A stretch of 64,000 nt of DNA. Origin: Candidatus Hodarchaeaceae archaeon (GTDB taxonomy: Archaea; Hadarchaeota; Hadarchaeia; Hadarchaeales; Hadarchaeaceae). The stretch is taken from assembly GCA_030016755.1 (NCBI GenBank), contig JASEJC010000001.1:4883-68882 (forward strand), given 5' to 3'. Below are positions 5,720 to 50,902 of this stretch, in pieces (within the stretch, counting starts at the first letter, position 1; each line of letters opens with the position of its first letter). The notes under the pieces are model-generated. The model worked only from the letters and a program-made list of their open reading frames with translations, did no database searches and was not told the DNA's origin. The translations under genes and the position numbers were made by a program.

Positions 5720-5748
5720 TTCTAATACTCTTGGATGGACTATTTAGG

Positions 5749-10109: not shown

Positions 10110-10436
10110 TCATAAAAGTGTTGTAAACTCACCTGTCCTCGCTTGCTTAGCAGCTTCCTTACCCTTGTCCGTCAAAGTGTAAGCGGTCAACAACCCGCGC
10201 CTTGTCTCCCCGATCAAGCCTCGTTTCTTGAGAGATCCTAACAACACATCCATCCTGCTTGGGTTCACCGAGACCCCTTGACGAGCGAAAATCTCTTGGA
10301 TGATTTCGTGCTTGCTCATCGACGTGTGCCCATATAGAAAGCCTAAGACCAGAGTTTCTAGATTATCTGCCACAAATTTTGTGCTCTTCGCGACGTCTAT
10401 CTTGCGCACATTTTCAGTCGGGAATGGGGCCTTCAT
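10110..10436 (-). CDS. PadR-like winged-helix DNA-binding protein
   Basis: 108 aa. LVLGFLYGH..MSKHEIIQEI...LLGSLKKRGLI...YTLTDKGKE follows the wHTH pattern. Its ATG overlaps the stop of the upstream gene (ATGA). Confidence 0.6.
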   Translation of the reverse strand: MKAPFPTENVRKIDVAKSTKFVADNLETLVLGFLYGHTSMSKHEIIQEIFARQGVSVNPSRMDVLLGSLKKRGLIGETRRGLLTAYTLTDKGKEAAKQARTGEFTTLL

Positions 10437-11320: not shown

Positions 11321-11433
11321 GCACTTCCCTCGTTTAACCCTTTTTTGGCCGGGCTTTTATCGGCTTTTAAAAGGTGAAAATCTTTCAAATTTTTTCGAAA
11401 CATTTATTAATCCTCGAATGGGCCCCAATATTG

Positions 11434-29782: not shown

Positions 29783-30055
29783 CACCAAAACTACCGCGGA
29801 TAGGGCGGCCAGCAAACCGATCGTTAGCGTGAAACCCAGGAAGAGCCTGTGAACGCCGAGGGCCCTTAGCGCGTCCTTGGATATCGCGTAGATCGAGGCC
29901 GCGCAGGCGAAGTAAAACCACAGGACAACTGTCGCGATTAGGAGCAGGTCCAGATTCAACAATATCATCACGAATGCCAAGAACCCTGCAGCCACAGTCG
30001 CGATCGTGAACGGGAAGAAGAGGGCTGTGAGGATCATCCACTTCCGGGAATTCAT
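29771..30055 (-). CDS. Small three-TM membrane protein downstream of the giant surface-protein gene
   Basis: 94 aa, almost entirely hydrophobic helices, on the same strand as the 30101-36499 gene. Confidence 0.45.
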   Translation of the reverse strand: MNSRKWMILTALFFPFTIATVAAGFLAFVMILLNLDLLLIATVVLWFYFACAASIYAISKDALRALGVHRLFLGFTLTIGLLAALSAVVLVLRG

Positions 30056-30100
30056 TCAATCACTTCTAAATGGATGAATAAGGGGGGAGAGCATTTCAGG

Positions 30101-33100: not shown

Positions 33101-36100
33101 ATCGACGTCCATCATGGTTACATCTATCCACGTGGGCCACCAACCATTCTCCCAATATCCGTAAAAGTTCTCGCCTTCGATCTCGATCCAAATCCCATAA
33201 GTTCCATTCGGGTTCCCGGGATTTCCTCCGTACTCATACTCTGGGGCCTCGACCTCATATGGTCCGCGCTCAAAAGAGGCCCCTGCCTCACCCCTAAGGC
33301 TTCCTATGAGCGTTCTCGATTCGACCACGGGCTGCTCGAGGTTCCCCGCCCTGTCAACGGCGAGGGTGCCGAACTCGTAGTAACCGTCCTCCTCGGGGGC
33401 GTCGAATGAGCACTCCCATGGCCACTCGTTATCAACACCGTAAAGCCTCCAGTCGTTCCAGCCCATGTTGTCATTTGAGTACCTGTAGAACAGCATGACC
33501 TCTTTAACGCCGCTCCGGTCGTCCGTCGCGGTTGCCGTGATAGTGAAAGGCAGCTCACTTTGCCAGTAGGGTGAGATCGTATCTACAGATGAGGTGGGCG
33601 GGACGGTATCGATGTAGACGTATGTGGCCCCCGACCAATCGCTCCAAGCCCCCGCCCCGTTCTGTGCGCGGACCTTGATGTAATAAATGCCATCAGCTAA
33701 AGTTGGATGATAGCTAGTATCCGTTGTGTAAAACGTGTCTTCCGACCAAGAGCGGTATACCTCATATTGATTCACCCCAGTATCAGGATCGCTTGCTACC
33801 CAGTACCAATGCGGTGAATTGTGGTTCGACCATTCTCTGCCGCAGTGATCCTCACCGACTATCGGGGTAGTTGGAGGCGTTGTATCCACGACTAAGGTGT
33901 AAGTGCCGTCACCGCTAATTTTACGAACCTCGATATAGTAATAACCCGACATCTCCGCAGTATAGATTATCTCCTCGCTCATGTGGCCTAGATGTGTGGA
34001 ACTCGCGATTAAGTTCTGTTCAGGATCGTATAGATGAAGGTCGAAATCACATTCGTGGTTTTCTTTTATGCCAATCGTTTTGCCCTTTTCTGCCCCAATT
34101 TGATAAAAGTCCTTTATATCCACCCCTCTTAAGCTGCCTGTGTATCTCCCCGAAAGTATCCTCCTTGGGCAATCAAGATTATCGCCTGCATCGCCTGCGA
34201 ATCCCGCATCAAATTGTTGTTCGATCCTAATCATCTCCGTGTCTAAATAACTTACCCCGGCGTATTTCGCTCTTGCTCTCAGGAGATAAGTGCCGCTTGG
34301 AGCATTTGCCGGCGCAAATATTGACTCCCTATAATACGCAGAACTGCCTGATCCGAGGGTAGTCCTATCAATAAGTCCGCCACTGATGGTCTGGCCATTA
34401 CTGTCCATGAACTCCAAGTATACATCAACTCGCTCTAAAGTGCGTGGTAAGTTATTACGCACATCGAAGAGAACGTAAAACTCATCGCCTGCCATAACTT
34501 CTGAAGGGGCCTCTAATAAATTAACGGTCAGCTCATTAATGACCCTCATCGGCATTTGTGGATCACCTAGCAAAACTGTTGTCAGTATCAGACCCCGATT
34601 ATTTGGATCACCGACCCCTTTCTCTTGTAAGTACTGCCGCTTTGCGGCATCTAAACACACCGCCGGTTGGTACCGATGTTCTGTAAAAAATTTCTGCCAA
34701 AAAAGAACATCAAGTTTTCCGCTTAAATCCTCATTAAGACCAGGTTCAAAAAGAACTCCGTGCACGTATGGTGCCTCTCTAGAGTTACCTACATAAGCGA
34801 TTGCAGTTTTTCCTTCGACAAAGGGACTGTATAGAGAATATTCACCTATCGTTGGTTTATCGTAATCGAAACTCGCAGAATAACATGCTACTACATACAT
34901 CAAAAAACCTTCTGAATTTGTAAGTTGAGCTACCGTGCATTCTCGGTAAAATGGAAAAAAGTCCTTTTTTCCTTTCTTTCCTTTTGCCGATAACTCAATT
35001 TCGTTTCCATGTGAAAACGAGTTAATGATTCCGGGTTCAAGTTGATTTATGGCATTCACTACGTTTATCTCTGTTAAATTCGCATCTTCGTCATAAAGTG
35101 TATGAGTGTCAACCTGCCCCCTTGCGAAATTAGCTATGGGGGCTTTAACTTCTGAACCATAATGGTCCCTAGTCCAACTTTGGTATATCCAGCCGCCGAG
35201 TAAAAGGAAATCCTCAACCGCCGGGCGATTAGCACCATACTCTGTGATCTTTTTAATAGATGGGGTTGGTACCCTGCTGACGTGGACCTCTGGTATCCAA
35301 TCTACTTCATCAAAAATTATCGATCCTAAAAAGGAAGCAAATTCACCGAAATTGCTATTGGTATTGTAATCGTCCCAAGTTCCATCCAAACAAGCATAAT
35401 AAGAATCTGCTGGCGCAAACGCTCGCCAAACCTCTCCGCGTTTCTTTGCTTGTTCTTCGAATATCCCATACAAGCGTACGTATCTTGTAGGAAGTTCCCA
35501 GTAATTGTCAAGCGCTGGTGGCTGCGGTGTCGCATCATAGGACGTTGGCCTATCGGCTGGATCCACGTCACCATTCAACAACACCCACTTGACATTTTTA
35601 TTAAGATAATACCATTTAATGCAATTTCTTATTTTTTCCGGTATATCTCTACCTTGGTAAGTATTTGTGATGCCGAGTGTGACATGGTCAAAAATCACGT
35701 TCCCGTCTTCGCTTTGATCTACCGTGACAACGTATGTTTCTAACCCCCAATCCTCTTTTTGCCGTACAAAGGCGTTCAAGTCCGCATCAACTAACTTTGG
35801 TCGCGTCACGATGAGGTAACCATCATCATTTGAGTTCTCTTGGGAGGCTAAATCATCATGTTTGATTTCAGACTCTAGACTATTATATGGAGGGTCTACT
35901 TCTACATACACCTTAATTTGTTCATAAAATACCATCTCCCCTACTGAAGGACGATATTGAATCGGGTAAACCCAGATGCCAATTACTAGCGACCCTCCTT
36001 CCCCACCCACCACCATAGCTTCCCCCAAACGTCCGGGATAGAATAAACCTGAATTATAAACGTTCCCATCCAGAAATAAAACCGTTGATTGTGATGTTTG

Positions 36101-36499
36101 TGCTGGTATAATGTAACTACCTTCAGTAAGTTGAAGTGTAATAGGGTCACTTGTTTCAAAACTAACGCTTACTATCTGTGGCAGCTCTTCTAACAAACAA
36201 CCGTCAGCCCAAGGAACTTTCAACAAATGCCCTTTGTAAGGCAACATCGGCTTGCCTTGAGCATTTAAGTAGGTACAATTTTCAATTCTCACAATGCTAT
36301 AATTTTCGTTTTCTTCGATTCGAGGAAAATCAAACGTAAATGTGTATTCAACTATTACGTTTTGGTTGTCTGATATAGTCTCGGCTGCCATGCTCACTTG
36401 AGAAGTGCCATTTTCTACGAGCGTGAAACCAGAAGTTAAAGGAATAAAACAAAGCAATAAAAAACCAAATATTGGTAGAATCCTAATAATCCATTTGAT
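30101..36499 (-). CDS. Giant secreted/surface protein: C25-type cysteine peptidase + CARDB-like + PPC domain + repeated Ig-like modules + Kelch-like propeller + Gly/Gln/Pro tail
   Basis: Uninterrupted 2118-aa track ORF (TTG 36457). The in-frame upstream codons encode a signal-peptide-like KWIIRILPIFGFLL beginning at ATC 36499. The domain evidence is listed under the separate features. Confidence 0.9.
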   Translation of the reverse strand: MKWIIRILPIFGFLLLCFIPLTSGFTLVENGTSQVSMAAETISDNQNVIVEYTFTFDFPRIEENENYSIVRIENCTYLNAQGKPMLPYKGHLLKVPWADGCLLEELPQIVSVSFETSDPITLQLTEGSYIIPAQTSQSTVLFLDGNVYNSGLFYPGRLGEAMVVGGEGGSLVIGIWVYPIQYRPSVGEMVFYEQIKVYVEVDPPYNSLESEIKHDDLASQENSNDDGYLIVTRPKLVDADLNAFVRQKEDWGLETYVVTVDQSEDGNVIFDHVTLGITNTYQGRDIPEKIRNCIKWYYLNKNVKWVLLNGDVDPADRPTSYDATPQPPALDNYWELPTRYVRLYGIFEEQAKKRGEVWRAFAPADSYYACLDGTWDDYNTNSNFGEFASFLGSIIFDEVDWIPEVHVSRVPTPSIKKITEYGANRPAVEDFLLLGGWIYQSWTRDHYGSEVKAPIANFARGQVDTHTLYDEDANLTEINVVNAINQLEPGIINSFSHGNEIELSAKGKKGKKDFFPFYRECTVAQLTNSEGFLMYVVACYSASFDYDKPTIGEYSLYSPFVEGKTAIAYVGNSREAPYVHGVLFEPGLNEDLSGKLDVLFWQKFFTEHRYQPAVCLDAAKRQYLQEKGVGDPNNRGLILTTVLLGDPQMPMRVINELTVNLLEAPSEVMAGDEFYVLFDVRNNLPRTLERVDVYLEFMDSNGQTISGGLIDRTTLGSGSSAYYRESIFAPANAPSGTYLLRARAKYAGVSYLDTEMIRIEQQFDAGFAGDAGDNLDCPRRILSGRYTGSLRGVDIKDFYQIGAEKGKTIGIKENHECDFDLHLYDPEQNLIASSTHLGHMSEEIIYTAEMSGYYYIEVRKISGDGTYTLVVDTTPPTTPIVGEDHCGREWSNHNSPHWYWVASDPDTGVNQYEVYRSWSEDTFYTTDTSYHPTLADGIYYIKVRAQNGAGAWSDWSGATYVYIDTVPPTSSVDTISPYWQSELPFTITATATDDRSGVKEVMLFYRYSNDNMGWNDWRLYGVDNEWPWECSFDAPEEDGYYEFGTLAVDRAGNLEQPVVESRTLIGSLRGEAGASFERGPYEVEAPEYEYGGNPGNPNGTYGIWIEIEGENFYGYWENGWWPTWIDVTMMDVDIRVRMEIKEIWGRHWIPEPVDEWVEELEGFRGRIWLPEPVRIGNIEVISVDGNIRSEFAGSDTSDYIYTVWFDLFGDVNVDTHITWPKATARAGVDTTPPESYLDQITPYWQNDETLPLEVTAKASDILSGVGNVELFYRYSPDNSSWSEWRSLGIDDNEPWTWKFDSPAGDGYYEFTSVATDRAGNAEGMRGAVSVVHVDGTFSSISAPASTEGWRGLAWDGGDKVYMRTWSELWSYSISNNTWTHLTAMPAEGASFNSLIWADGHLYALRGYYFDPKHDFWRYSISANRWESMASTPIGIHRGALVWTGDDYIYTLDNGGIFLRYSISGNRWDTLSFPSSMLAADLTWDGRDHIYALLEGTYYSLELWRYTISSDSWVRLKTISGVTPVQAPGYPYPVAIVSIMIPGDGYLYLVWQDGKIWRYELPSGGLMSVASGIGTIWDAVWNGESIYTDGGWKYTPTVKAVVTGAMCGVDTMPPLSSVDPVSPLWQNAGTVPFQVTATVSDALSGAENIELWYRYSADNSTWSDWALYDIDNSEPYSWTFDAPAGDGFYEFYSVAADRAGNREAAPESADAQAGVDTLPPISSLNSIEPHWHNASMLPIEVTAAANDPVPPNGAVPSGMRDVRLYYRYSPDNLNWSGWTLYAADDQSPYAWQFDPSQGNGYYELYSIAADVAGNVEKAPEEPDERIGVDTTPPVSSVDPIEPYWQTLTPFAITATASDGLSGVASVELYYRHSLDNSTWGDWTSFGADNEEPYEWSFDIPAGHGFYEFYSIACDVAGNVEGPPPEADARCATLIPAMIDIDPETLNLRSQGRWITCYIELPGGLDVAKIDVSTVALEGDIFLEGILSAEPWPTEIGDHDGDGVPDLMVKFDRSAVQGLVSVGDNVELTVIGKWGSAPFRGSDTIRVIKPSEGQGQGHGNRPEVPPGQSGGTPGQGGNQGQGQGPPQTPPEQGGQSPGQGQGESGWRAGPGQRGGNLDQGGGNQGRGNAKGKNK
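30104..30358 (-). repeat. C-terminal low-complexity Gly/Gln/Pro-rich tail ending GNAKGKNK
   Basis: aa ~2034-2118: GQGQGHGN...GQGGNQGQGQGPPQTPPEQGGQSPGQGQG. No C-terminal TM or PGF-type sorting signal. Confidence 0.8.
30713..31678 (-). repeat. Three tandem ~106-113-aa repeat modules (VDTxPPxSSV...SGV...YRYSxDNxxWxxW...PYxWxFDxPxGxGxYEFYSxAxDxAGNxE)
   Basis: aa 1594-1915 of the track ORF. Two further diverged copies lie at nt 33302-33613 and 32498-32821. Confidence 0.85.
31688..32461 (-). repeat. Kelch-like beta-propeller (about six blades) inserted between repeat modules of the giant protein
   Basis: Recurrent blade pattern: ...LWSYSISNNTW..., FWRYSISANRW, FLRYSISGNRW, LWRYTISSDSW, IWRYELPSGG. 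Each is preceded by a G-x-hydrophobic-Y strand. Confidence 0.7.
33887..34204 (-). other. Pre-peptidase C-terminal (PPC)-like domain of the giant protein
   Basis: GDAGDN...DIKDFYQIGAEKGKTIGI...DFDLHLYDPEQNLIASS...GYYYIEVRKISGDGTYTLVV follows the PPC pattern. Confidence 0.65.
34538..35830 (-). other. Peptidase C25 (gingipain/caspase-fold) catalytic region of the giant protein
   Basis: Domain opening YLIVTRPKLVDADLNAFVRQKEDWGLETYVV. Candidate catalytic His in NSFSHGNE (aa 483) and Cys in YVVACYSASF (aa 525). Confidence 0.7.
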
Positions 36500-36544
36500 A
36501 AAACCAACCCCTCGTTACTTTGAGTTATCTATCAACTGTAGTAT

Positions 36545-37276
36545 TTAGAACCTCCTCCTGCGCTGCCAAATTAGTAGCTGAACCCCGATGCTCATGAGCA
36601 CCACAAGTAAAATACACCAAAACCATGGAAAATAAGAAACCTCTCTAATTGGAGTGTCTGGCACCCTCCCGCGATTGTAAATCCATAGAGGTGTACCAGT
36701 TTCGCGGTTTAGGAGAATCAGTTCTTCGTTACGATCTTTTATTCCTCTGGCTACCACATAATCTCCGCCTGCTGAAATCGCAACTGGGGGTTCAAAGACA
36801 AGAAATATAGACCAGAGCGGAGTGTTATTTTCTTTAGAAAATGTGAGCACGTTAAAAAAGGTACTGGCAACGATGTATGTACCGTCCGAGGAGATACCCA
36901 CGTATGCTATATACTCGCTATAGGACCATAGGGGTTGATTGTCTTGGTTCGAAAAGAGGTAAAGGGCGTTGGAAGCGCCAGCTGCTATGTAATCCCCATT
37001 ATCTGAAATTGACATACAGCCCATAAGAGTTTCGTAACTCCACAGTGGTTGGTTATCCTCACGAGAGAACAAACAAAAGCCCTGAGAAACAGTAAAAGAT
37101 GCCACAATAAATCTGGCGTCTGATGATATCTCGAGGTGAGAATCATAGTGAACCCACGCGCTAGCATGTCCGCTCACCAATAACATAATAACAGCGGCAA
37201 TTGCTGTGATCAAAATTAAGGTGCTACGTAAAGGTGGCAGAGAAGTGTACTTTTCTTTATACATCTGAATCTCCAT
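36545..37276 (-). CDS. Membrane-anchored beta-propeller-repeat protein (PQQ/WD-like repeats) directly upstream of the giant gene
   Basis: N-terminal TM. Four repeats end in (E/Q)(D/E)NQPLWSY / NNTPLWSI / TGTPLWIY. C-terminal TM followed by RRRRF. Confidence 0.65.
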   Translation of the reverse strand: MEIQMYKEKYTSLPPLRSTLILITAIAAVIMLLVSGHASAWVHYDSHLEISSDARFIVASFTVSQGFCLFSREDNQPLWSYETLMGCMSISDNGDYIAAGASNALYLFSNQDNQPLWSYSEYIAYVGISSDGTYIVASTFFNVLTFSKENNTPLWSIFLVFEPPVAISAGGDYVVARGIKDRNEELILLNRETGTPLWIYNRGRVPDTPIREVSYFPWFWCILLVVLMSIGVQLLIWQRRRRF

Positions 37277-37528
37277 TTCTAACTTACCCTGGTGGCTTAA
37301 ACGCTTTAGATATCAATCTTGATTTTTTGGACTAACCCAGCGCTCATGCTGATTCTGGTCTCCGCCCAGTAGCGGGCCTGACGGGATTCCGACCCAGCGT
37401 GGGGAATTGGGTCTGCTTAATCTCGATACTCACCATAAGTGATAATCTAGCCTTGTATTTGTACTTCCTATGGGCGAAGGAGGTGCTGACGGTCATCTTC
37501 AGGTGCCCCTCTCATCTCCCGACGACTA

Positions 37529-37912
37529 TCACATAAACAAGTATTGGGTCGTCGTGGGCAGCTCCCTCCGCAGAGCCGCAACCTCGGGCCGATAAATCAG
37601 CAGCTCCCCAGCAGCTCGTTTGTTCAAGATTTTGCCCGCCACCCTCGCCTCCGGCTCCCCGCTGATCCTCGCCGCCCCTCTGCCGAGTTTTGGATCAAGC
37701 GCGATCAGGATCGGCAACTGGAGTTTATCCCAATCCGTTTCGGGCAGGAGCTTAGAAAGGGACTCGAGCTCTTCGCGCTTGAAGAAGTGGGTGCTACCAT
37801 CGCGCGTCCGAACTGAGGGTTTTGGGGACGAGAGTGCCTCCCGCAAAGATATGCGCCTCTCGGGCAGGTGGACGTTGAGCCGCCCAAGCTCGAGTTTGAT
37901 GATGCGCTCCAC
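37529..37912 (-). CDS. UPF0216/DUF61-family archaeal protein
   Basis: LELGRLNVHLPERRISLREAL...VRTRDGSTHFFKREELESL...LQLPILI matches my recollection of the DUF61 pattern. Confidence 0.65.
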   Translation of the reverse strand: MERIIKLELGRLNVHLPERRISLREALSSPKPSVRTRDGSTHFFKREELESLSKLLPETDWDKLQLPILIALDPKLGRGAARISGEPEARVAGKILNKRAAGELLIYRPEVAALRRELPTTTQYLFM

Positions 37913-37914
37913 GC

Positions 37915-38553
37915 TTACCCGCGCTCCTCGAGTATCGCCTTTATCCGCTTCAGGCGGGTGAAGTTCTCGCGCTCCATCTCGTCGAGCCTCATCATGATGA
38001 ACTTGAGGGCCCCCCTCAGCCTAGGGATCAGGATGTACTCTAGCGCGTTCACCCTTCGCTTCGTCTTCTCGAGCTCCTTAGCGATCGCGAACGCCGATGC
38101 CTCGAGTTCGGCAAGTTCGACCAAGAGCTTAAGCGCTCGCTCGAATTCCCGCGATGCCTCGTCCAGCTCCGATGAAGTCATGTGTAGGCTATATCCCCTT
38201 GCCACAGCATTGCGCTCCACTTCTCCAACCTCCACCGCGGGCACCGTGATGCCCATGATGAAGCGTGTCGAAATTTCCAGCTGAAGTTCTCGCTTGGTCT
38301 CCCTCGCCGCCTGCATGGTCTCGAGCGTCCCCATGACGGCAAAACAATTAGACAGCGCGCGGTGAGCCTTCGAAAGCTGCTCTAGCGCCTTCGCCCTTGA
38401 GTCCTGAATCCTCCTCAATACCTCGAAGAACTCCATTACTAGCGCGTCCATCTTCTCCTTCAGCAGGTCGTGGCCCCTCTGCGCTAGCCCCACGCGCTTC
38501 CTGAGCTTCATGAGCTCCATCCGGGTCGGGGAAACTGCTAACGCCGCCGCCAT
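37915..38553 (-). CDS. atpD: A-type ATP synthase subunit D
   Basis: SPTRMELMKLRKRVGLAQRGHDLLKEKMDAL and ...RVNALEYILIPRL. Confidence 0.92.
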   Translation of the reverse strand: MAAALAVSPTRMELMKLRKRVGLAQRGHDLLKEKMDALVMEFFEVLRRIQDSRAKALEQLSKAHRALSNCFAVMGTLETMQAARETKRELQLEISTRFIMGITVPAVEVGEVERNAVARGYSLHMTSSELDEASREFERALKLLVELAELEASAFAIAKELEKTKRRVNALEYILIPRLRGALKFIMMRLDEMERENFTRLKRIKAILEERG

Positions 38554-38892
38554 CTACTCGCCCTCCTTTTTCACCATTATTTCGGCCCCGACCGTTCGCC
38601 TGATCACCTCGCGCAGCTCATCGACCTTCGGTGTGTACCCAGTTTTGTCGGGAATTCGGAGCACGAGGGGGAGCAGCCGCTTCGCCCGCATCGCCTGGCG
38701 GAACTCGAACCCGAGCTCCTCCGCGACGCGATGGGTCAATAGGATGAGCCCGATCTCATCGCTTGCTAAAAATTCTTTCAGCTTGGCGAGCGTCTCGTCC
38801 TTCGTCGCGTGAACGTGTGCGTAGGTGGCGCCAGCCAAGGCCATGCCCGTGGTGGTGTCCAGATCCCCGATGACGGCAACTCTATAACTCAA
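38554..38892 (-). CDS. atpF: A-type ATP synthase subunit F
   Basis: 112 aa. VAVIGDLDTTTGMALAG pattern, position between C and D. Confidence 0.85.
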   Translation of the reverse strand: MSYRVAVIGDLDTTTGMALAGATYAHVHATKDETLAKLKEFLASDEIGLILLTHRVAEELGFEFRQAMRAKRLLPLVLRIPDKTGYTPKVDELREVIRRTVGAEIMVKKEGE

Positions 38893-40015
38893 TCTTTGCC
38901 ACCCTCGTGATTTTTTCCTTTATTTTCTGCGGCTCCGCGCCGTCCGCCTTGAGCCTGATTATCGCGCGCAGGTTTCGCATCTCGTTCTCCTTCAGGTTGA
39001 TGTACGAAACCACGGGCGCTATGCTGAAGAACTGGGTGAACTCAAGCCACCTACATAATTTAAGGTGCACTTCATCGAGAGCCCGCTCGGCCGCGGAGAT
39101 CCCTTGCTCCTCTATCTGCGGCATGGCTTCTGCCAAAATTTTGCCTGGGGTGGTGATGTGGATCATGTGTATTGCCGAGCGGACGTCCTCGGCCGTGACC
39201 ATCGCCTTCAACATCACATCCGTCAGCTCGTGCGAAGGCTTCACAAGATACTTGTCGATTTCATCTGGTGGGGTGCCCTCATGTTTGAGCCGCAAAATCA
39301 GCTTGATGTTCACCGAGTCGATCTCGTAGCCGATAATCGCCTTTAGTATTGACCGCTGTGCCCTCTTTGCCAGCACGTCCTCCCACAGGGCCTTGTAATA
39401 GTGCTTGTCGAGAGCCAAAAGCAATGCAATCAAGCCGCGCTTCTCGTAATCCTCCAGTGCCGCCGATATCACGTCGAAGTACTCACTTCCCTTCAGGAAT
39501 TCCAGCAATCCTTTCAAATCCTCTGCTGACGTGAGCATCTCGAGCCTCTCGCGGGGCATCGTCGGTGAAGACAACAGCACTTGTAATCTTTGCTCCTTTG
39601 GAATCTTGTTGTGAATCATTGTGATGAGGGCCTTGAGGTTCCAGAGGTCCACCCGCTGGAGTATCCTCAAAACGGTTCCCTTGCGTTGCTCCGGCACCAT
39701 GGCGATGAGCTCGCGGTAGCGTGCGTTCAAATTCTCCCTCAGCGCTCGCTCCACCGCCACCATGTCGACTTCCTCGCCTTTCGCGACCTCGGCGAGCTGC
39801 GGTCGGTATTCAGTGTCTTCCAGAGCGGAGAATATGTTCACGATCCTCGGGGCGTCCGCAAGCTCCATCAGACGGGCCTCCGATAGCAGCCTCGCCTCCC
39901 ACGCGCTTATGGTCGCGTTGCAGAAGACGTACGGCATCGAGCGGCGGGCGCTGATGATCACTAGGGCAAACATGGCACCTATCAGGGCTAGGACAAAAAT
40001 TAGGACCTCTATCAT
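38882..40015 (-). CDS. atpC: A-type ATP synthase subunit C (d-like); possible 26-aa hydrophobic N-terminal extension
   Basis: YVFCNATISAWEARLLS is the usual subunit-C N-terminus and begins at aa 28. ATG 40015 overlaps the atpE stop (ATGA). The alternative start is ATG 39937. Confidence 0.85.
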   Translation of the reverse strand: MIEVLIFVLALIGAMFALVIISARRSMPYVFCNATISAWEARLLSEARLMELADAPRIVNIFSALEDTEYRPQLAEVAKGEEVDMVAVERALRENLNARYRELIAMVPEQRKGTVLRILQRVDLWNLKALITMIHNKIPKEQRLQVLLSSPTMPRERLEMLTSAEDLKGLLEFLKGSEYFDVISAALEDYEKRGLIALLLALDKHYYKALWEDVLAKRAQRSILKAIIGYEIDSVNIKLILRLKHEGTPPDEIDKYLVKPSHELTDVMLKAMVTAEDVRSAIHMIHITTPGKILAEAMPQIEEQGISAAERALDEVHLKLCRWLEFTQFFSIAPVVSYINLKENEMRNLRAIIRLKADGAEPQKIKEKITRVAKIEL

Positions 40016-40641
40016 TTGAACCCTTCGAAGAGGACCTTTGCTATTTTTACTCGCAGGGTTTCAAATTCCCTCCGCATCCTGCCCTCGAACGTCTCGTCGA
40101 TTTCAACCTTCCCATCAGGCGTTCCGACCCTTACCCCGCCGATCACCTGAATGGGCTCCCCGAAAGAAATCGTCACGCTTTTCTTATCCCCGCCCAGCTC
40201 GCGCTCTATCTGGTCCTTGGTCCCTGCTAGCAGCTTCAGATCACGGCGATTGGCCCGGATGACGACGCTGTCCGAACCGAGCTTCTTGCCCGCAGCCACA
40301 GCGATGCCGACCAAGTCCTTCTCATATTTTTTTGACGATGCGTGGGCCCGTAGTTTATCCTCCACCTCCTTGAGGACCTCGTTTATCAACGCCTCCCGCT
40401 TCTGGAGCATCTCCCTTTTGGCCTTCATTCGGCCTTCGGCGAGCACTTGTCCGTAAATCTGCTTTCCTTGGATGCGCGCCTCTTTGACAACTCGTTCTTC
40501 CTCCTCCTTGGCACCAAAGCTGGCTGCATCGAGCAGCGTCTTTGCCTCCCGCTTCGCCGCCCTGATTATCTCCGTGGATTTCTCCTTAGCCTCCTTGAGG
40601 ATATCCTCCGCTATCAGCTGGGCGCCTTTCTCTGCTGGCAA
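40012..40641 (-). CDS. atpE: A-type ATP synthase subunit E
   Basis: 209 aa. N-terminal charged coiled coil (IAEDILKEAKEKSTEIIRAAKREAK) and a globular C-terminus. Confidence 0.85.
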   Translation of the reverse strand: MPAEKGAQLIAEDILKEAKEKSTEIIRAAKREAKTLLDAASFGAKEEEERVVKEARIQGKQIYGQVLAEGRMKAKREMLQKREALINEVLKEVEDKLRAHASSKKYEKDLVGIAVAAGKKLGSDSVVIRANRRDLKLLAGTKDQIERELGGDKKSVTISFGEPIQVIGGVRVGTPDGKVEIDETFEGRMRREFETLRVKIAKVLFEGFK

Positions 40642-40654
40642 GACATGCCCCCCC

Positions 40655-41140
40655 TTAACCCATCGCGCCGATACTTGATAAAATCAAAATTGTTGCCAAA
40701 AGCCCCAAGATAGCGTAAAGCTCGACCATCACCGTGTAAAGCATGCTTTGCCCAAACACCTCTGGCCTCTTTGCGACAGCGCTGACGCCCGCTGTGGCGA
40801 CCTTTCCCTGAGAATATGCTGTAGCCCCTTGGAGAATAGCTGGAACGGCCGCTACTAGCACAACCATGCCCATCCAGGGGGCAATAGCAATCTTAGCAAC
40901 AACCGCTGGGTAAGCCACAAATATTATCAAGAAACCCGCCACGAAACCATAAATCCCCTGTGTGCCCGGAAGCACCTCTAGCACAAAAAGTTTTGAGAAC
41001 TTCTTTGGATCCTCCGCTGATACCGCCGCCGCTGCAACTCCGGTCATCCCGACGCCAACAGCTGAGAAAATCCCCGGAATGACCACTGCCAGCCCCGCCG
41101 CCAACGCTACCCAGACCTCTTCACCTGCCAGGCCACTCAC
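40655..41140 (-). CDS. atpK: A-type ATP synthase proteolipid subunit K; duplicated four-TM form
   Basis: 161 aa with two hairpins. Each has a Glu in the second helix (VLEVLPGTQGIYGF and VMVELYAILGL). Confidence 0.85.
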   Translation of the reverse strand: MSGLAGEEVWVALAAGLAVVIPGIFSAVGVGMTGVAAAAVSAEDPKKFSKLFVLEVLPGTQGIYGFVAGFLIIFVAYPAVVAKIAIAPWMGMVVLVAAVPAILQGATAYSQGKVATAGVSAVAKRPEVFGQSMLYTVMVELYAILGLLATILILSSIGAMG

Positions 41141-43166
41141 CCCCTTCTACTTTGGTAAACCTCCTTTTAGCTTTGAATGGTGCGAACTTTTCCCCACCCG
41201 ACTCGTAGAATTTTCCGAAGAACTCGGCGAAGTGAAGACGCATTGTGTGGATGAAACCCCCTAGGCTATTAATGAATATGTTGAAGGTGTGAGCAGCTAC
41301 GAAAACAAACGCGATTCCAATCATCGCCAAAATGGCTATTATTATGGCTGGCGAAAGCGAAAGATTAGGCGCCACCATCCCGCCCCAAGCGATCCCGAGG
41401 ATGAAATTTATCGAAAATGCGATCACCCCAGTCGCGATCCCGAGGGCTAAAAGCCTTGAATAAGAGGTCACGTCAGCGATCAACCCAGTTATACCATAAA
41501 CGACGTTAATCGGTCCTCCAACTTTTTCCCTAGCGCTTTTACCGATCATGACTGCGCCGACTATGCCTATCGCCAAACCGAGGTAGAAGAGGATCCTGAA
41601 TGCCACGATGGTGGCTGCTGCTGGGACAAGGGGGTTGAACGCAGCAAAAAGATCTATTTTAGGAAATGCAAAATTCAGCCCAAATTCGTACATGCCGATA
41701 CCTAAAATGCAGAAGCATAGCCCGAAGAATCCGATTAAAATCAGCACGCGTGATATGCGGCTGAATAAAATACTTTTCCAGTCCCTCCTGAAGATATCCT
41801 TCAACACCCCCGCCAGCCCGAACGCCACGATGAGGTGGATGATGCCTATGAATATAACCACCTTAAGCAGTGGGATTGGTCGCTGAATCGGATTTACCCA
41901 GAAGCCCTGCCCAAATCCGAAGCACCCCCCTATCAGGAGACCAACGATAACTGTGAATATCGCACACACGACCATCATCCGCCTGAGCTTTCGCGGGAAT
42001 ATTTTCGCCAACCAAACGCCGGAGGCCATGAAAATCCCGAGCGCGATGCCGTAGCCCACATCGGACAGAGCTATGGCGAAAAACAGCGCGAAGGTAAGGC
42101 TCACGAAGGGCGTTGGGTCCACTTCATCGTACTTCGGTAGCCCATACATTCCTGTCACATACTCGAAGTCCTCCACCACTTGCGGGTTCTTCAGCTCGAC
42201 GGGGACAGCCTCTACTTCAGCCCGCTGAGGGTCGTAAGTGCGCAGGACGTGGCGTCCATTCGTTGCGGTGCTCAACACCTCTTCAAGTTCAGCCACCTGC
42301 TTCGCCCGCACCCATCCCTCAATCACAGTTGTGGCGTCGGTGTAGCCGAAAAGGCCGGCACACTCCAGCTGCTCCCTTTGAATCTCCAAGAGCTCCCTCA
42401 CCTGGGAAACTCCCTTAGCCCTCGTGCGAGCCAATCTTCGCACCGCTCGCTCGAGACCCCGCTGTTGCCCCTCGGTCTTTGCTAGCCGCTTCTTCAACTC
42501 CTTGATTGCTGCCGCGGGAGAACCTGAAAAAGGGGGGAGCTCCAAGAGTTCTACCTCGTACCTGTAAAACACCGGCGATAGTTTTTGCTGGTCCTGTGCG
42601 CGACATGCCACGACCACCATCCTCCGCTTCCCCGCCCCAATCGTCGACGTGAACACCCGCCGCGCTAGGGCCTCTTTAACCGCCGCGAAGAATTCCTTGA
42701 CCCGCTCCTCGGCGATGTACCCGACCGCGACTCTGATCTCATCGGTTGAGCGAAGGTACCGCAGCGGGAACCTGATCTCCCTGAATTTCTCCAGCACCCC
42801 AATCTGAGCAAGCAGGTCTTGGCGCTCCTTTTCTAGTCCATCGCTTTTCTCCTTCAGCTGCGTCACCTTGGGCCCCAGTTTGCCAATGCTTTTTTTCGCC
42901 AGCTTCAGGGTTTGCTCAAACGTCAGCTGCTTGACGGTGGTTGGTTTTCCAGATGCTGGTCCAAGGAACTCCTCCATCTCCTTGAACTTTGTGAGGAGAG
43001 ATGAAAGCTCATAAACTTCTTCCCCGACCGCCTTCCGCGTCACCTCGAGCTCTGTGATCTCCTTTAGCTGTATCACACCTGCTTCGTGCAGCCTCGCGAC
43101 GACATCGTCATGTGCCCTGCGGTGGAAAATCACGCGAAACTTTTTCATCCTCACTGTTTTGAACAT
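41121..43166 (-). CDS. atpI: A-type ATP synthase subunit I (a-like stator/proton channel)
   Basis: MFKTVRMKKFRVIF...LHEAGVIQL N-terminal domain and a C-terminal polytopic membrane domain with RLHFAEFF-type helix. The start was set at ATG 43166. Confidence 0.9.
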   Translation of the reverse strand: MFKTVRMKKFRVIFHRRAHDDVVARLHEAGVIQLKEITELEVTRKAVGEEVYELSSLLTKFKEMEEFLGPASGKPTTVKQLTFEQTLKLAKKSIGKLGPKVTQLKEKSDGLEKERQDLLAQIGVLEKFREIRFPLRYLRSTDEIRVAVGYIAEERVKEFFAAVKEALARRVFTSTIGAGKRRMVVVACRAQDQQKLSPVFYRYEVELLELPPFSGSPAAAIKELKKRLAKTEGQQRGLERAVRRLARTRAKGVSQVRELLEIQREQLECAGLFGYTDATTVIEGWVRAKQVAELEEVLSTATNGRHVLRTYDPQRAEVEAVPVELKNPQVVEDFEYVTGMYGLPKYDEVDPTPFVSLTFALFFAIALSDVGYGIALGIFMASGVWLAKIFPRKLRRMMVVCAIFTVIVGLLIGGCFGFGQGFWVNPIQRPIPLLKVVIFIGIIHLIVAFGLAGVLKDIFRRDWKSILFSRISRVLILIGFFGLCFCILGIGMYEFGLNFAFPKIDLFAAFNPLVPAAATIVAFRILFYLGLAIGIVGAVMIGKSAREKVGGPINVVYGITGLIADVTSYSRLLALGIATGVIAFSINFILGIAWGGMVAPNLSLSPAIIIAILAMIGIAFVFVAAHTFNIFINSLGGFIHTMRLHFAEFFGKFYESGGEKFAPFKAKRRFTKVEGGEWPGR

Positions 43167-43170
43167 CGGG

Positions 43171-43494
43171 TCACCCGGCAACGGCATCCAGAACGAGTTT
43201 GACGGCCCCCGCCTGTCGCTCCCTGGCCCTCCGCTCCATCGCTTGAATATGTCTCCGCGTCTTTTTCACAAGCTCCTGAACGTCGGCCTCTGCCTTTTTC
43301 TTCGCGTCATCAAGCACCTTCTGGGCCTTCGCCTTTGCCTCGAGCTTGGCGCTTTCCTTTAGCTTTTCCACTTCTTTCCGGGCTGACTCCAAGATGGCCG
43401 ATGCTTCGCGCTGGGCCGCCTCCACCTGCTCTTTCGCCCTTTTCTCGGCCTCGAAAATCACGCGAAGGCTTTCCTCGACCACCTGTTTCACCAC
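43171..43494 (-). CDS. atpH: A-type ATP synthase subunit H
   Basis: 107-aa Lys/Glu/Ala-rich coiled coil at the first position of the operon. Confidence 0.7.
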
Positions 43495-43520
43495 CAGCGC
43501 CTATGGTAATTTGTTGTGGT

Positions 43521-43559
43521 ATTCATAAAAGTTCTGATTGCAGAGATATTCATAAAAGT
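43521..43559. promoter_or_regulatory. Two exact 12-nt direct repeats ATTCATAAAAGT (43521-43532 and 43548-43559) in the atpH/atpA divergent promoter
   Basis: Read directly from the sequence, period 27 nt. Each copy contains a TATA-like core (CATAAAAG / CTTTTATG). Confidence 0.45.
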
Positions 43560-43595
43560 GGAGGCGTTAATCATAGCTGGAGCTGGGGTGTTGAA

Positions 43596-45383
43596 TTGGG
43601 GAAGATAGTTCGAATCACCGGGCCCGTAGTCATCGCTGACAAGATGAAGGGCTCGGAGATGTACGAGCTCGTCAGGGTGGGGGAGGAGGGCCTGATGGGG
43701 GAGATAATCGGCCTTACCGAGGACCGCGCGACCATCCAGGTTTACGAGGAAACCTCTGGCGTAAAACCGGGCGAGAAGGTCGAGGGTACCGGAAAACCTC
43801 TTTCGGTCGAGCTCGGCCCTGGGCTGATAGGCGCAATTTACGACGGTACACAGCGGCCGCTCACGGTCATCCGGGCGAAAATTGGTGACATGATAAAGCG
43901 TGGGGTCTCCGCTCACGCCCTACCGCGCGATAAGAAATGGGAGTTCGTCCCCAAGGTCAAGAAAGGCGCGGATGTGGTCGAGGGCGATATTTTAGGGACG
44001 GTCAAGGAAAGCAAGCTCGTCGAACATCGAATTTTGGTACCTCCGGGCATCAACGGGAAAGTTCTAGAAGTTGCGGATGGGGCACACAAAGTCGAAGATG
44101 CCATCGCCACGATCGAAACGGCTGATGGCAAGCGGGATATCCCGATGATGCAAATTTGGCCCGTGCGACGAGCGCGACCGTTTAAGGAAAAGTTTGATCC
44201 AAATGAGCCGCTTTTGACTGGACAGCGGGTTGCCGACACTTTCTTTCCGATCGCGAAGGGGGGAACTGTTGCAATTCCTGGAGGGTTCGGATCTGGAAAG
44301 ACGGTTTTCCTCCAGCAGGTCGCGAAGTGGGCTGACGCCGACATCGTCACCTATGTCGGTGCTGGCGAACGCGGCAATGAGATGTGTGATGTGCTCGTGC
44401 ACTTCCCGCAGCTGAAGGATCCGCGAACAGGCGAGTCGCTGATGGAACGGACCACGCTCATCGCCAACACCTCCAACATGCCCGTCGCTGCCCGAGAAGC
44501 GGGAGTCTACACTGGAATCACCATCGCCGAGTACTTCCGCGACATGGGCTACGATGTGGCGCTCATGGCCGACTCGACCTCGCGGTGGGCCGAGGCTATG
44601 CGCGAGATATCCGGGCGGCTGGAGGAGATGCCAGGAGAAGAGGGCTTCCCAGCATACCTCGCCTCGCGGCTGGCCGAGTTCTACGAGCGGGCTGGTCGGG
44701 TGCGAACCCTGGGCAGCGATGAGCGCTTCGGCTCCGTGACCGTGCTAGGTGCTGTCTCGCCTCCTGGCGGCGACCTCTCAGAGCCTGTCTGCCAAAATAC
44801 GCTCCGCATAGTCAAGGTCTTCTGGGCGCTTGACACGGGTTTGGCAGACCGCCGCCACTTCCCGGCCATCCACTGGCTGACCAGCTACTCGCTGTACGTC
44901 GACAACGTGCGGGAGTGGTGGAAACAAAAACTTGGGGAGGATTGGAAATCTCTACGTGACGAGGCTATCGCCATGCTCCAGAAAGAGGCGGAACTCGAGG
45001 AAATCGTGAAGCTTGTGGGCCCTGATGCCCTCCCCGAACCCGAGCGAGCCGTGCTAGAGGCAGCCCGGATGCTGCGCGAGGACTTCCTCCAGCAGTTCGC
45101 CTTCCACGAGGTCGATACCTATTGCCCTGTGGAAAAACAACTCGGGATGCTCAGGCTCGTGCTGGATTTCTACCGCAATTCTGTTGAAGCCGCAAAGCGG
45201 GGCATCCCTGTGGCGGAAATCAAAAAACTGCCCATCAAGGATACCATCGCCAGCATGAAGCGGCTACCATCTGAAAAATTCGCAAAGGAGCAAGGAAAGA
45301 TGGAAAAGCAACTCATGGAGCAATTTGAGGCGTTGTTGAAGACGAGAAAAGCGCCGGTGGAGGAGGGTAAGCGTGAAGGGTGA
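43596..45383 (+). CDS. atpA: A-type ATP synthase catalytic subunit A
   Basis: [11 protein letters not shown], Walker A GGFGSGKT, and SRWAEALREISGR-like [25 protein letters not shown] 43596 was chosen; the upstream part of the track ORF is antisense to atpH and Pro-rich. Confidence 0.95.
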
Positions 45384-46764
45384 AGCTGTGAAGAGCCGCG
45401 AGTACCTGACCGTCGCAGAGGTTTCGGGGCCGCTCATGATCGTCGAGGGCGTCAGCGGCGTGGCCTACGGGGAGGTGGTGGAGGTCATCACGCCGGACGG
45501 GGAGGTCAAGCACGGGCAGGTGCTGGATGCCTACGAGGACCGCGCAGTGGTACAGGTCTACGAGGGCACGAGGGGAATTGACACCTTCAAGACTCGGGTC
45601 AGGTTCACTGGGGAGACGATCAAGTTCGGCGTCGGGCTTGAGCTGCTCGGGAGGATATTCAGCGGGCGGGGGGCGCCTATAGATGGCGGCCCAAAGCCGA
45701 TTTTCGAGGACGAGTGGGATGTACATGGGGCCCCGATAAACCCGGCCGCGCGCGAGTACCCGAGCGAGTTCATCCAGACAGGCATTTCGGTCATCGACGG
45801 CATGAACACCCTCGTGCGGGGCCAAAAGTTACCCATCTTCTCGGGCGCGGGGCTGCCGCACAACGAGCTCGCCGCCCAAATCGCCAGACAAGCCAAGGTT
45901 TTAGGCGAGGAGGAAAAGTTCGCCGTAGTGTTTTGCGGGATGGGGATAACGCATGAAGAGGCGGCGTTTTTCATTAAGGATTTCGAGCAAACCGGTGCAC
46001 TCGAGCGCGCGGCGGTTTTTCTAAACTTGGCTAACGACCCTGCCATCGAGCGCATCCTGACCCCGAGGCTAGCCCTGACCGCTGCCGAGTACTTCGCGTT
46101 CACTCAGGGGATGCATGTGCTGGTGATCCTCACGGACTTGACCAACTACTGCGAGGCCCTCCGGGAGATTTCGGCGGCGCGCAGCGAGGTCCCTGGCAGG
46201 CGTGGGTACCCCGGCTATCTTTACACAGATCTTGCGACTATGTATGAACGCGCTGGTAGGATAAAGGGCAAAAAGGGCTCGGTTACTCAGATGCCAATCC
46301 TGACCATGCCCGGCGACGATATCACTCACCCGATTCCTGATCTAACAGGCTATATCACGGAAGGACAGCTTTGTATGGACCGTGAGCTCCACCGGAAGGG
46401 GGTCTACCCTCCGATCAACCCTCTGCCATCGCTCTCTAGGCTGATGAAGGATGGGATAGGCCCAGGCCGCACGCGGGAGGATCACATGGACAACTCGAAC
46501 CAGCTCTACGCGGCCTACGCTGAGGGGAAGGACCTCCGGGCGCTCGTGGCAGTCGTTGGGGGAGAGGCGCTCACCGAGAGGGACCGGCGCTACCTCGACT
46601 TCGCTGACCGCTTCGAGCAGGAGTTCATAAACCAGGGGCGGGACGAGGACCGGTCAATCGAGACCACCCTTGACCTAGGGTGGGAACTCCTGCGCACGCT
46701 TCCGGAGGCCGAGCTCAAGCGCATCGATCCAAAATTCATAGAGAAGTACCTGCGCCCGAAGTAG
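45373..46764 (+). CDS. atpB: A-type ATP synthase subunit B
   Basis: [19 protein letters not shown], degenerate P-loop SGAGLPHNE and [18 protein letters not shown] start overlaps the atpA stop. Confidence 0.95.
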
Positions 46765-46793: not shown

Positions 46794-46979
46794 GTGCTGA
46801 TAAGCGAGCGCAAAAAGGTGGTGGTGCAGAAGAGCAGGTTCAGAGGCGTTGACACGCTGGATATCAGGACGTGGATAGAGACGCCGGAGTACAAGGGATT
46901 CACGAGGAAAGGCGTCAACATCCCGATCGAGAAGGGGGAGGAGCTGGCCAAGAAAATCCTGAAAGTGGTCAAAGAATGA
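46794..46979 (+). CDS. PC4/p15-like single-stranded-DNA-binding protein
   Basis: ISERKKVVVQKSRFRGVDTLDIRTWIETPEYKGFTRKGVNIPIEKGEEL parallels the PC4 core (..VSVRDFKGKVLIDIREYW....GRKGISL). The start codon is uncertain (GTG 46794 assumed). Confidence 0.6.
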   Translation: MLISERKKVVVQKSRFRGVDTLDIRTWIETPEYKGFTRKGVNIPIEKGEELAKKILKVVKE

Positions 46980-48283: not shown

Positions 48284-48826
48284 TTATGGTCTCTCGCGAG
48301 TCAGCGCGTAGTAGGTAACGTCTCCCTCGTCATCCACGATTGCCCACAAAATTTTCTTCCTCACGCTGTGGGCGAGCCGCACAGCCCGCGCGAGTTCGGT
48401 GGGCGTGAGCTTCACCCCCTCTGGCACCGCCTGAACCAAAAACTTGGAATGCGCTTCCCCTGGTTTGTCCCCGCGCTCGTACACCCGGAAGTGAGCCCCG
48501 AACTTCAGACCCGTCTTGATTATGTACCCTCGCGAGCGGAGGTCGGCGTAAACCGCGTACTTGAGCATGGCCTCGGGGTCTGCCTCGGTGAACTTCTCCA
48601 AGAGGTCTTTGAACTTCAGCTTCTTTCCTTCCTCGTCGACCACGCGGAGCTTCCCGCCCTCAAGCAGGTAGAAGGCCTCGGCGGGCGCAAGCTGGAGCTT
48701 CCCCCCCGCCAGCGGCTTTCCGTAAGAGCCCCGCTGGTAGAGCTGGTTCGCCTGCGCCTCGTCCCAGACTATTATTTTGCCTTTGTACAACTGGGCCTCT
48801 ACAACTGGGATTTCGGCTTCTTCCAT
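48284..48826 (-). CDS. endA: tRNA-splicing endonuclease EndA (short, ~180-aa subunit)
   Basis: YADLRSRGYIIKTGLKFGAHFRVYERG...HSKFLV contains the catalytic Tyr/His/Lys context. Confidence 0.85.
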   Translation of the reverse strand: MEEAEIPVVEAQLYKGKIIVWDEAQANQLYQRGSYGKPLAGGKLQLAPAEAFYLLEGGKLRVVDEEGKKLKFKDLLEKFTEADPEAMLKYAVYADLRSRGYIIKTGLKFGAHFRVYERGDKPGEAHSKFLVQAVPEGVKLTPTELARAVRLAHSVRKKILWAIVDDEGDVTYYALTRERP

Positions 48827-48982
48827 GCCGTCCCCCTTACACCTATTCAAGCGCGGTTAAGAAGGTTGCTTTTCCGTGGTTGGATAAACGGGGGTGTTGG
48901 TTGAAGAACTGTATATCTCTATAAATAAGGGTGTTTACAAGCCCAAGTGACCTTCGGAGCGTATCTAACCATCGATCTTAAA

Positions 48983-50809: not shown

Positions 50810-50902
50810 TGGTGGGGTCGCCGAGATTCGAACTCGGGTCACTGGCTTTTTCGCCCGAGGGCCCCGAAGCCAATAGGATAGACCAGGCTACCCCACGACC
50901 CC
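50810..50902 (-). tRNA. tRNA-Pro(CGG) with a 15-nt canonical (37/38) intron and an encoded CCA
   Basis: Hand-folded. Acceptor GGGGTCG/CGACCCC, anticodon stem TTGGC/GCCAG, loop TTCGGG-[GCCCTCGGGCGAAAA]-A. T arm CCGAG-TTCGAAT-CTCGG, then ACCA. Confidence 0.85.

Follow-up and report, generated by a model that had tools for sequence, protein, structure and literature searches.

The 64,000-nucleotide stretch of archaeal DNA analyzed here (hereafter the window) carries a complete set of A1AO (archaeal A-type) ATP synthase genes, with subunits A, B, C, D, E, F, H, I, and K all matched by Pfam and NCBIfam models (H most weakly), that is distributed over two divergently oriented blocks: a minus-strand block reaching from a DUF61 gene to atpH (37529–43494) and the plus-strand pair atpA-atpB (43596–46764). 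We consider it very likely that the locus specifies one complete enzyme from two divergent transcription units, each with a promoter of its own, and that this split layout is ancestral and of single origin. Hadesarchaea (order Hadarchaeales) share it widely: about 40 contigs, assembled independently in different projects and with different assemblers, show the same layout. It is no peculiarity of this genome but is conserved across the order. According to the original prediction, the arrangement would be unremarkable if it were common and already described for the lineage; common it is, whereas no published description of the Hades atp gene order was found in the literature searched.

The minus-strand unit has atpH (43171–43494) as its first gene, encoding the peripheral stalk subunit H/G, which matches TIGR02926 (AhaH, E 2.3e-10) and PF16999 (E 1.8e-5), both below cut-off, but is conserved in position among Hades contigs with 43–75 % identity. 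An in-frame GTG at 43482, favored by homologue alignments and an upstream GGTGGTGA, may be its start rather than 43494. It is followed by atpI (41121–43187; membrane stator subunit I/a; PF01496, E 8.4e-28; NF004428, E 6.7e-111 over its full length), atpK (40655–41140; c-ring proteolipid, an NtpK-like protein of 161 aa with two hairpins; PF00137 in two stretches; NF005124, 137.6 bits, above the cut-off of 127), atpE (40012–40641; peripheral stalk subunit E; PF01991, E 4.8e-28), and atpC (38882–40015; rotor socket subunit C/d; PF01992, E 6.5e-65), which overlaps atpE by 4 nt and atpF by 11 nt. The central stalk subunits F (38554–38892; PF01990, E 1.4e-17) and D (37915–38553; PF01813, E 1.7e-57; NF001545, 255 bits, above the cut-off of 226) come next, and the atpD start (38553) lies directly against the atpF stop codon (38554–38556) with a gap of 0, just as had been predicted. 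Between neighboring cistrons, the spacing varies from −20 to +13 nt, and the overlapping or abutting arrangement of the minus-strand cistrons suggests that they are translationally coupled.

On the plus strand, the catalytic subunit A (atpA, 43596–45383; 595 aa, without intein) is recognized by TIGR01043 (E 5e-289) and by four Pfam domains, one of which (PF16886) is the A-specific insert, the "non-homologous region" of A/V-type subunits, and it contains the Walker A motif GGFGSGKT at residues 229–236. Its start is the TTG at 43596; the longest open reading frame begins at 43335, with homology setting in only at residue 88–89 of that frame. The non-catalytic subunit B (atpB, 45373–46764; TIGR01041, E 4.8e-247) overlaps atpA by 11 nt, and a search of B with the pattern G....GK[TS] found no P-loop. 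As claimed beforehand, the pair occupies the opposite strand about 100 nt from atpH: the divergent spacer (43495–43595) comprises 101 nt, or 113 nt if atpH begins at the GTG at 43482. The gene that had been called PC4-like is indeed present downstream of atpB (46794–46979, plus strand; 61 aa), where it scores 24.6 bits against a gathering cut-off of 25 for PF02229 (E 1.8e-5). It recurs beside atpB with 70–80 % identity in 10 Hades contigs, sharing the atpB strand in three and lying on the opposite one in seven, and judged by this recurrence it is a real conserved gene, which here is possibly co-transcribed with atpAB as a non-obligate member of that unit.

The departure from a colinear order is evident from comparison with loci of Thermococci, Methanocaldococcus, and Methanobacteria (L005–L008, L012, and L014), which read I-K-E-C-F-A-B-D and in this point bear out the original prediction. 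Among 76 non-Hades loci fetched by AtpA, every one with enough flank had A, B, and D in this order on one strand, including Thermococci, methanogens, Bathyarchaeia, and most bacterial V-type loci with one-strand F-A-B-D, whereas not a single Hades-like contig did so. The canonical single operon, in which all nine genes share a strand and A-B is flanked by F and D, is accordingly found neither here nor in the approximately 40 related contigs. The closest AtpA loci derive from Hadesarchaea MAGs (83–89 % identity), and the split layout is seen in L001–L003 and L081, in about 30 metagenome contigs with AtpI identities of 38–74 %, in the deep-clade genomes L150, L152, and L153, and on contigs bearing the DUF61 protein of Ca. 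Hadarchaeum yellowstonense; the lowest identities among split-layout contigs are 38 % for AtpI and 69 % for AtpA. The named nearest relatives of AtpD and DUF61 are assigned to Hadesarchaea, Hadarchaeaceae, Hadarchaeales, or Hadarchaeum. The exceptions are, for each protein, a single NCBI record called "Methanobacteriota archaeon", together with the record of the window itself, whose "Hodarchaeaceae" label is probably a mislabel exposed by the gene order.

A neighbor-joining tree of B, D, I, and C, that is, of the ATP synthase proteins themselves rather than of the species, recovered Hades monophyly and the deep clade in 200 of 200 replicates each. Since the deep clade and the crown group are both split, both sides of the root carry the layout, which therefore apparently represents the conserved, ancestral arrangement of the whole order, with the lineages just outside Hadarchaeales being sampled only as far as the locus retrieval method reached. 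Variation on this theme does occur. In one lineage (L116), placed as sister to the crown group in 196 of 200 replicates, AB is instead found downstream, past the far end of the cluster, and runs convergently on the opposite strand, and two sub-lineages carry an extra gene of 1.1–1.6 kb, either a GT2-HAD fusion or Sua5, between AB and H. These insertions and the placement in L116 indicate that the atpH and atpAB units are separable. Being normal and inherited across the order, the arrangement serves as a lineage marker instead of an oddity of one genome.

The spacer between atpH and atpA can be aligned across relatives and harbors two copies of the TATA-like 11-mer TTCATAAAAGT, one at 43522–43532, which on the atpH (minus) strand reads ACTTTTATGAA and would be the TATA box of the atpH unit, and one at 43549–43559 (plus strand), the putative TATA box of the atpAB unit, followed by a Shine-Dalgarno-like GGGGTG run at 43585–43590. 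The copies are 27 bp apart, with purine-rich, BRE-like stretches between them. In most relatives, the first copy lies 28–31 nt from the atpH start, and a pattern scan, which missed the CATAAAAGC form present in other spacers, placed the end of the second copy 36–37 nt ahead of the atpA start codon in 16 of 30 distinct spacers. Elsewhere in the window, GATAAAAGC, which resembles the second copy, is located about 36 nt upstream of another gene, and other promoters feature boxes of the CTTTTAT or ATAAAAG type at similar distances. As direct repeats, the two copies would be used in opposite orientations relative to transcription, which is allowed for TBP. In the relatives with an inserted gene, the first copy stays by atpH and the second by atpA, which points to two separable, putative back-to-back core promoters, one per unit, rather than one shared element; the bidirectional promoter that had been proposed to balance the output of both halves is thus too strong a claim. 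The geometry is not uniform across the order, since the spacer of the deep-clade genome L150 measures only 30 nt. A scan for sigma-70 promoters and intrinsic terminators gave counts at or below shuffle expectation, these being bacterial models that are inapplicable to an archaeon.

An alternative view of the spacer is that the repeat of 11–22 nt constitutes the site of a dedicated regulator acting on both units from a shared bidirectional control region. Within the window, the exact 11-mer has two occurrences, neither of them outside this spacer, and it belongs to a direct repeat of 22 nt (D8) with copies alike at 18 of 22 nt; direct repeats are moreover unusual for two divergent directional promoters. 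However, in more distant relatives all that the copies share is a generic TATA-like core, CAT(A/T)AA, the distance from each copy to the start codon of its own gene stays constant, and where the copies are 1.1–1.6 kb apart or, as in L116, no longer adjacent, each gene still has a TATA-like box, which renders a common regulator site unlikely, and two core promoters remain the preferred reading. As to how the junction itself came about, the most trivial explanation would be a spurious inversion by mis-assembly of this contig at 43495–43595, an artefact that the original prediction had reckoned with. This is ruled out for all practical purposes by about 40 independent assemblies that share the same junction with a homologous spacer, and atpAB has no long inverted repeats on its flanks. 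A genuine but recent inversion or rearrangement limited to this genome or genus would agree with a layout unlike that of every non-Hades comparator, but it is extremely improbable given that the layout is common to lineages with AtpI only 38–57 % identical and is found in both branches of the deepest bifurcation of the ATP synthase tree.

More elaborate is the scenario in which atpAB was acquired horizontally, displaced the original genes, and landed beside an operon devoid of AB, so that the two modules would differ in origin. AB does act as a movable cassette, as illustrated by L116 and by the two sub-lineages in which other genes have entered between AB and H. Nevertheless, the best outgroups of A, B, and D are identical (Thermococci and Methanobacteria/Methanococci, at 64–66 %, 71–74 %, and 47–49 % identity, respectively) and thus give no sign of different origins, although the choice of comparators by AtpA similarity makes this a weak test. 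In addition, sequence identity across Hades contigs declines in parallel for AB and the remaining subunits, and horizontal acquisition is altogether very unlikely.

The ancestral split would instead have arisen once, before the sampled Hadarchaeales diverged. In the process, atpAB would have left its slot between atpF and atpD for a position upstream of atpH in inverted orientation, leaving atpF joined to atpD-DUF61. Of the two routes originally suggested, excision and reinsertion fits the data, whereas a simple inversion in place would leave AB between F and D; the observed order −B −A +HIKECF +D consequently requires one inverted transposition or two nested inversions, either of which may have been the route. 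A search for inverted or direct repeats around atpAB as rearrangement scars returned only short, chance-level matches. The outcome would be one unit, atpH-I-K-E-C-F-D-DUF61 on the minus strand, for the peripheral stalks, the membrane stator, the c-ring, and the whole central rotor, and another, atpA-atpB on the plus strand and possibly the PC4-like ORF, for the A3B3 catalytic head. Each unit would be co-transcribed from a start site behind its own core promoter, with a short leader and a GGTG-type ribosome-binding site, and the split may permit a separate setting of the 3:3 head stoichiometry.

The DUF61/UPF0216 gene (37529–37912, minus strand), correctly expected after atpD, exceeds the cut-offs of both Pfam (PF01886, E 1.6e-39, 135 bits versus 27) and NCBIfam (NF003153, 129.8 versus 114) and begins 2 nt past the atpD stop, so that it is probably the final cistron of the atpH unit. 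It succeeds atpD in all Hades-like contigs reaching that far, directly in most of them, and with one SSO2105_N-domain gene in between in L150 and L151. An AF2 model of the protein (pLDDT 92) had a single structural match, the solved but uncharacterized DUF61 structure 5VFK (SSO0941; TM 0.78, E 4.9e-9), and the structure search thus offered no clue to its function. An ancient linkage of DUF61 and atpD was considered as well but is only weakly supported, as in Methanobacteriaceae a stretch of about 1.8 kb with ORFs on the opposite strand separates atpD from the DUF61 gene downstream.

With respect to ion specificity, a phmmer alignment of atpK with Enterococcus hirae NtpK (2BL2) places LPGTQ, SQGK, and MVELY opposite LPGTQ, AQGK, and MVETY, and all five Na+ ligands (L61 via its backbone, T64, Q65, Q110, and E139) are kept. 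Judged by these residues, the ATP synthase is probably Na+-coupled.

In terms of significance, the locus represents no new kind of machine, and its importance is modest because other archaea are already known to have split atp clusters. It nonetheless offers a natural case in which the catalytic head of a rotary ATPase would have been transcribed apart from the other subunits over long evolutionary time, with a bearing on the link between gene order in operons and the assembly and stoichiometry of complexes. The gene order (F-D-DUF61 joined, AB divergent from H) may further aid the binning and classification of fragmentary subsurface contigs as a marker for Hadarchaeales. Whether the separation of the head from the rest is adaptive and not a frozen accident is a different matter: an adaptive reading, with the A3B3 head expressed independently of the rotor-stator-membrane module and with DUF61, appended to atpD throughout the order, helping the ATP synthase as an accessory or assembly factor specific to the lineage, appears quite unlikely to us. 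If it were so, the ratio of head to base could be tunable, or the enzyme could be idled in the deep subsurface, where energy is extremely limited.

Compared with known systems, the canonical euryarchaeal operon (aha/atpHIKECFABD of Methanosarcina, Thermococcales, and Methanococcales) shares with the Hades locus the nine subunits, the H-I-K-E-C-F order, the adjacency of A and B, and the tight packing, but in the Hades locus AB is found upstream of H on the other strand, D directly follows F, DUF61 is appended, and there would be two promoters instead of one. The Na+ V-type ATPase of E. hirae (ntp operon) likewise has a proteolipid c subunit of four helices and about 16 kDa; the other Hades subunits, however, are of the archaeal A-type, and the bacterial V-type operons retrieved mostly have A-B-D on one strand, unlike the Hades locus. 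In haloarchaea, atpD is detached from atpHIKECFAB, which is another lineage-specific change at the F-A-B-D end, yet there D is displaced and AB stays, whereas in Hades AB is displaced and D stays with F. Splitting as such is not unprecedented, since the split atp clusters known from Crenarchaeota show that an archaeal A-type ATP synthase can function although its genes are not joined in one operon. While crenarchaeal atp genes are scattered singly and in small clusters, Hadarchaeales retain one locus with two modules, the head and everything else, that meet at a conserved divergent junction.

The ATP synthase locus is divided into two divergent units. Unit 1, on the minus strand, comprises atpH (43171-43494), atpI (41121-43187), atpK (40655-41140), atpE (40012-40641), atpC (38882-40015), atpF (38554-38892), atpD (37915-38553) and, 2 nt past atpD, a DUF61 gene (37529-37912), and unit 2, on the plus strand, consists of atpA (start TTG at 43596) and atpB (45373-46764). 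The gene calls of the original prediction were all confirmed by an ORF map and Pfam and NCBIfam scans, including the well-supported DUF61 gene after atpD. For the 'PC4-like' gene placed after atpB, a 61-aa ORF (46794-46979) with a protein conserved in relatives is present, its PC4 match scoring just under the Pfam cut-off. Neighboring cistrons on either strand overlap by as much as 20 nt or lie up to 13 nt apart, and atpF and atpD abut exactly. The longest atpA ORF begins at 43335, homology to subunit A starts only at its residue 88-89, and the in-frame TTG at 43596 yields the conserved N-terminus. This TTG is used in almost all crown-group contigs of the Hadesarchaea (homologous positions in L001-L122) and replaced by ATG in their deep clade, a conserved weak start codon for a subunit that is needed in three copies. 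On the other side of the 101-nt spacer (43495-43595), atpH homologues align only from residue 4-5 onward and the SD-like GGTGGTGA precedes an in-frame GTG at 43482, so that the true atpH start may lie there, giving a spacer of 113 nt.

This layout is a property of the lineage. In a scan taking one genome per species, three Hadesarchaea MAGs held by far the closest AtpA loci (83-89 % identity), followed by Bathyarchaeia, Thermococci, and methanogens at 61-66 %, and mapping of the window proteins onto the fetched loci revealed D<F<C<E<K<I<H< >A>B in all three. An assembly inversion artefact at the atpH/atpA junction, as considered initially, is excluded. With an AtpD of only 71 % identity, one contig still keeps the layout, DUF61 included, and a metagenome scan by AtpI alignment yielded about 40 Hades-like contigs (AtpI identity 38-74 %, AtpA 69-90 %), which show B<A< H>I>K>E>C>F>D>DUF61> wherever they reach the junctions. 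The split layout extends to contigs encoding the Ca. Hadarchaeum yellowstonense DUF61 protein, to the most divergent contig, L118, from a clade whose members are named 'Candidatus Hadarchaeales archaeon' by NCBI, and to three more deep-clade genomes (L150, L152, and L153). The sole exception is contig L116 (6661-15709), in which H-I-K-E-C-F-D-DUF61 is intact, with B and A placed downstream of that unit, on the other strand and convergent with it. In L152 and L153 (1877-5188 and 1-377), an RnfC-like gene adjoins atpB, and AtpA (1103 aa) is interrupted by an intein that contains a LAGLIDADG endonuclease; no intein is present in the AtpA of the window.

DUF61 follows atpD in all examined Hades-like contigs reaching that point, directly in most and separated by one other gene in L150 and L151. 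Its confident AF2 model (pLDDT 92) matched only the uncharacterised DUF61 structure 5VFK. In Methanobacteriaceae, about 1.8 kb containing opposite-strand ORFs separates DUF61 from atpD, which makes it doubtful that the linkage is older than the Hadesarchaea. Between SecD (28046-29782) and DUF61, the window has a stretch of about 7.7 kb (29783-37528) that is absent from other Hades loci, where DUF61, a small ORF, and SecDF lie side by side. It encodes a 2118-aa surface-type protein with C25-peptidase, Ig, and Kelch domains (30101-36457, minus) and a 243-aa PQQ-like ORF, has a GC content of 43-47 % as compared to about 55 % elsewhere, and was probably acquired as an island. In NCBI, the records identical to the AtpD and DUF61 of the window bear the label 'Candidatus Hodarchaeaceae archaeon', which denotes an Asgard family. 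Among the closest relatives of both proteins, those with a source name are called Hadesarchaea, Hadarchaeaceae, Hadarchaeales, or Hadarchaeum, the exception for each protein being a single NCBI record named 'Methanobacteriota archaeon'; since every close relative belongs to Hadarchaeales, as does the synteny, 'Hodarchaeaceae' is probably a naming slip for Hadarchaeaceae. Elsewhere, a tRNA-like 3' half with encoded CCA (GGGGGTTCGAATCCCCTCCCCCGCACCA; ~1265-1345, minus), upstream of an ORF at 608-1264, received no ARAGORN call, and the only call was an odd 'tRNA-???' at 50810-50902 (minus). These may be two archaeal tRNAs with introns; the window also encodes a tRNA-splicing endonuclease (48284-48850).

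The spacer between atpH and atpA contains a 22-nt direct repeat with the core TTCATAAAAGT, whose only two occurrences in the 64-kb window are at 43522 and 43549. Across relatives, copy 1, with the conserved flank CATAAA(A/C)(G/A)TTCTGATTT, in most cases begins 28-31 nt from the equivalent of the window's atpH start, and copy 2 ends 36-37 nt ahead of the atpA start codon, followed by a GGTG-type Shine-Dalgarno-like run. The deep-clade boxes read CTATAAAC in L152 and TTTAAA and TTTTAAAAA in L150, where the spacer measures only 30 nt, and similarly spaced boxes of the CTTTTAT or ATAAAAG type occur in other promoter regions of the window. The best reading of the spacer is not one shared bidirectional element but a pair of predicted back-to-back core promoters, whose BRE-like purine-rich stretches would both fall within the 16 nt between the boxes. 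The bidirectional promoter of the original prediction would have to account for two boxes that each stay with their own gene: in one sub-lineage (L096, L097 [5098-6498], L105, L106, L111, and L114) a gene for a 466-aa GT2-HAD fusion lies between the copies on the atpA strand, L118 (3268-4635) has acquired a Sua5 gene there on the atpH strand, and every copy remains beside its own gene in all cases. Even in L116, with AB elsewhere, a TATA-like CCTTTTTTACC is still found upstream of atpH. There is some room for a shared regulator acting on both copies, as the boxes are direct repeats and hence oppositely oriented relative to transcription. The GT2 glycosyltransferase-HAD phosphatase fusion resembles a compatible-solute synthase. 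A second compact back-to-back promoter region occurs in the 53-nt spacer (11321-11373, with CTTTTAAAAG and GATAAAAGC boxes) of another divergent pair (10433-11320, minus; 11374-12072, plus).

As to ancestry, a neighbor-joining tree from concatenated B+D+I+C (200 replicates) joins L116 with the crown group and sets the deep clade as their sister (Hades monophyly 200/200; deep clade 200/200; L116 + crown 196/200). As the split layout occurs on either side of the deepest divergence, it is most simply ancestral within the sampled Hadesarchaea, and L116 most simply reflects a secondary relocation, that is, a second move of AB. What the group shares as a derived character is the F-D(-DUF61) fusion, with AB behaving as a cassette. 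Of the two routes that had been proposed, a simple inversion of AB relative to the rest is ruled out because AB inverted in place would remain between F and D; the other, excision and reinsertion, fits. Going from the canonical +HIKECF +AB +D to the Hades order -AB +HIKECF +D would minimally require inverted transposition of AB across HIKECF to its other side or, alternatively, two nested inversions, of HIKECF+AB and then of HIKECF. A repeat search found no scars of the rearrangement; an old event would be expected to leave none. A, B, and D share their nearest outgroups (Thermococci and Methanobacteria/Methanococci), and this comparison, weak since AtpA similarity was the basis for picking the comparators, gave no sign of a foreign origin of AB.

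Nothing suggests that the locus encodes anything but a working rotary ATP synthase. Subunit A contains the Walker A motif (GGFGSGKT), which is absent from subunit B of the window. Unit 1 codes for the stalks, stator, c-ring, and entire central rotor, with F and D now neighbors, and unit 2 for the A3B3 head alone; separate promoters would plausibly let the head (three copies each) be set apart from the other subunits. The c subunit (atpK) is a two-hairpin proteolipid with E. hirae NtpK as its closest solved relative, and conservation of all five Na+ ligands of NtpK suggests a Na+-coupled ATP synthase with one site per four helices.

The original prediction deemed the arrangement unremarkable if common and already described for the lineage. 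It is common across Hadarchaeales, and literature searches, which did not cover every journal, yielded no published account, so that it represents a real, conserved, and apparently undescribed gene-cluster variant that can serve to mark the lineage and offers a natural experiment in operon modularity. A specialist is unlikely to be much surprised, and departures from a single atp operon are already known in archaea, the cluster of Ignicoccus hospitalis, for example, being disrupted (PMC2614490). The predicted departure from the common single-strand order holds: all non-Hades loci fetched by AtpA that had enough flank read ...A>B>D> on one strand, and the enzyme is a standard A1AO family member, whose genes in Thermococci, Methanocaldococcus, and Methanobacteriaceae, unlike in Hadesarchaea, run I-K-E-C-F-A-B-D on one strand.
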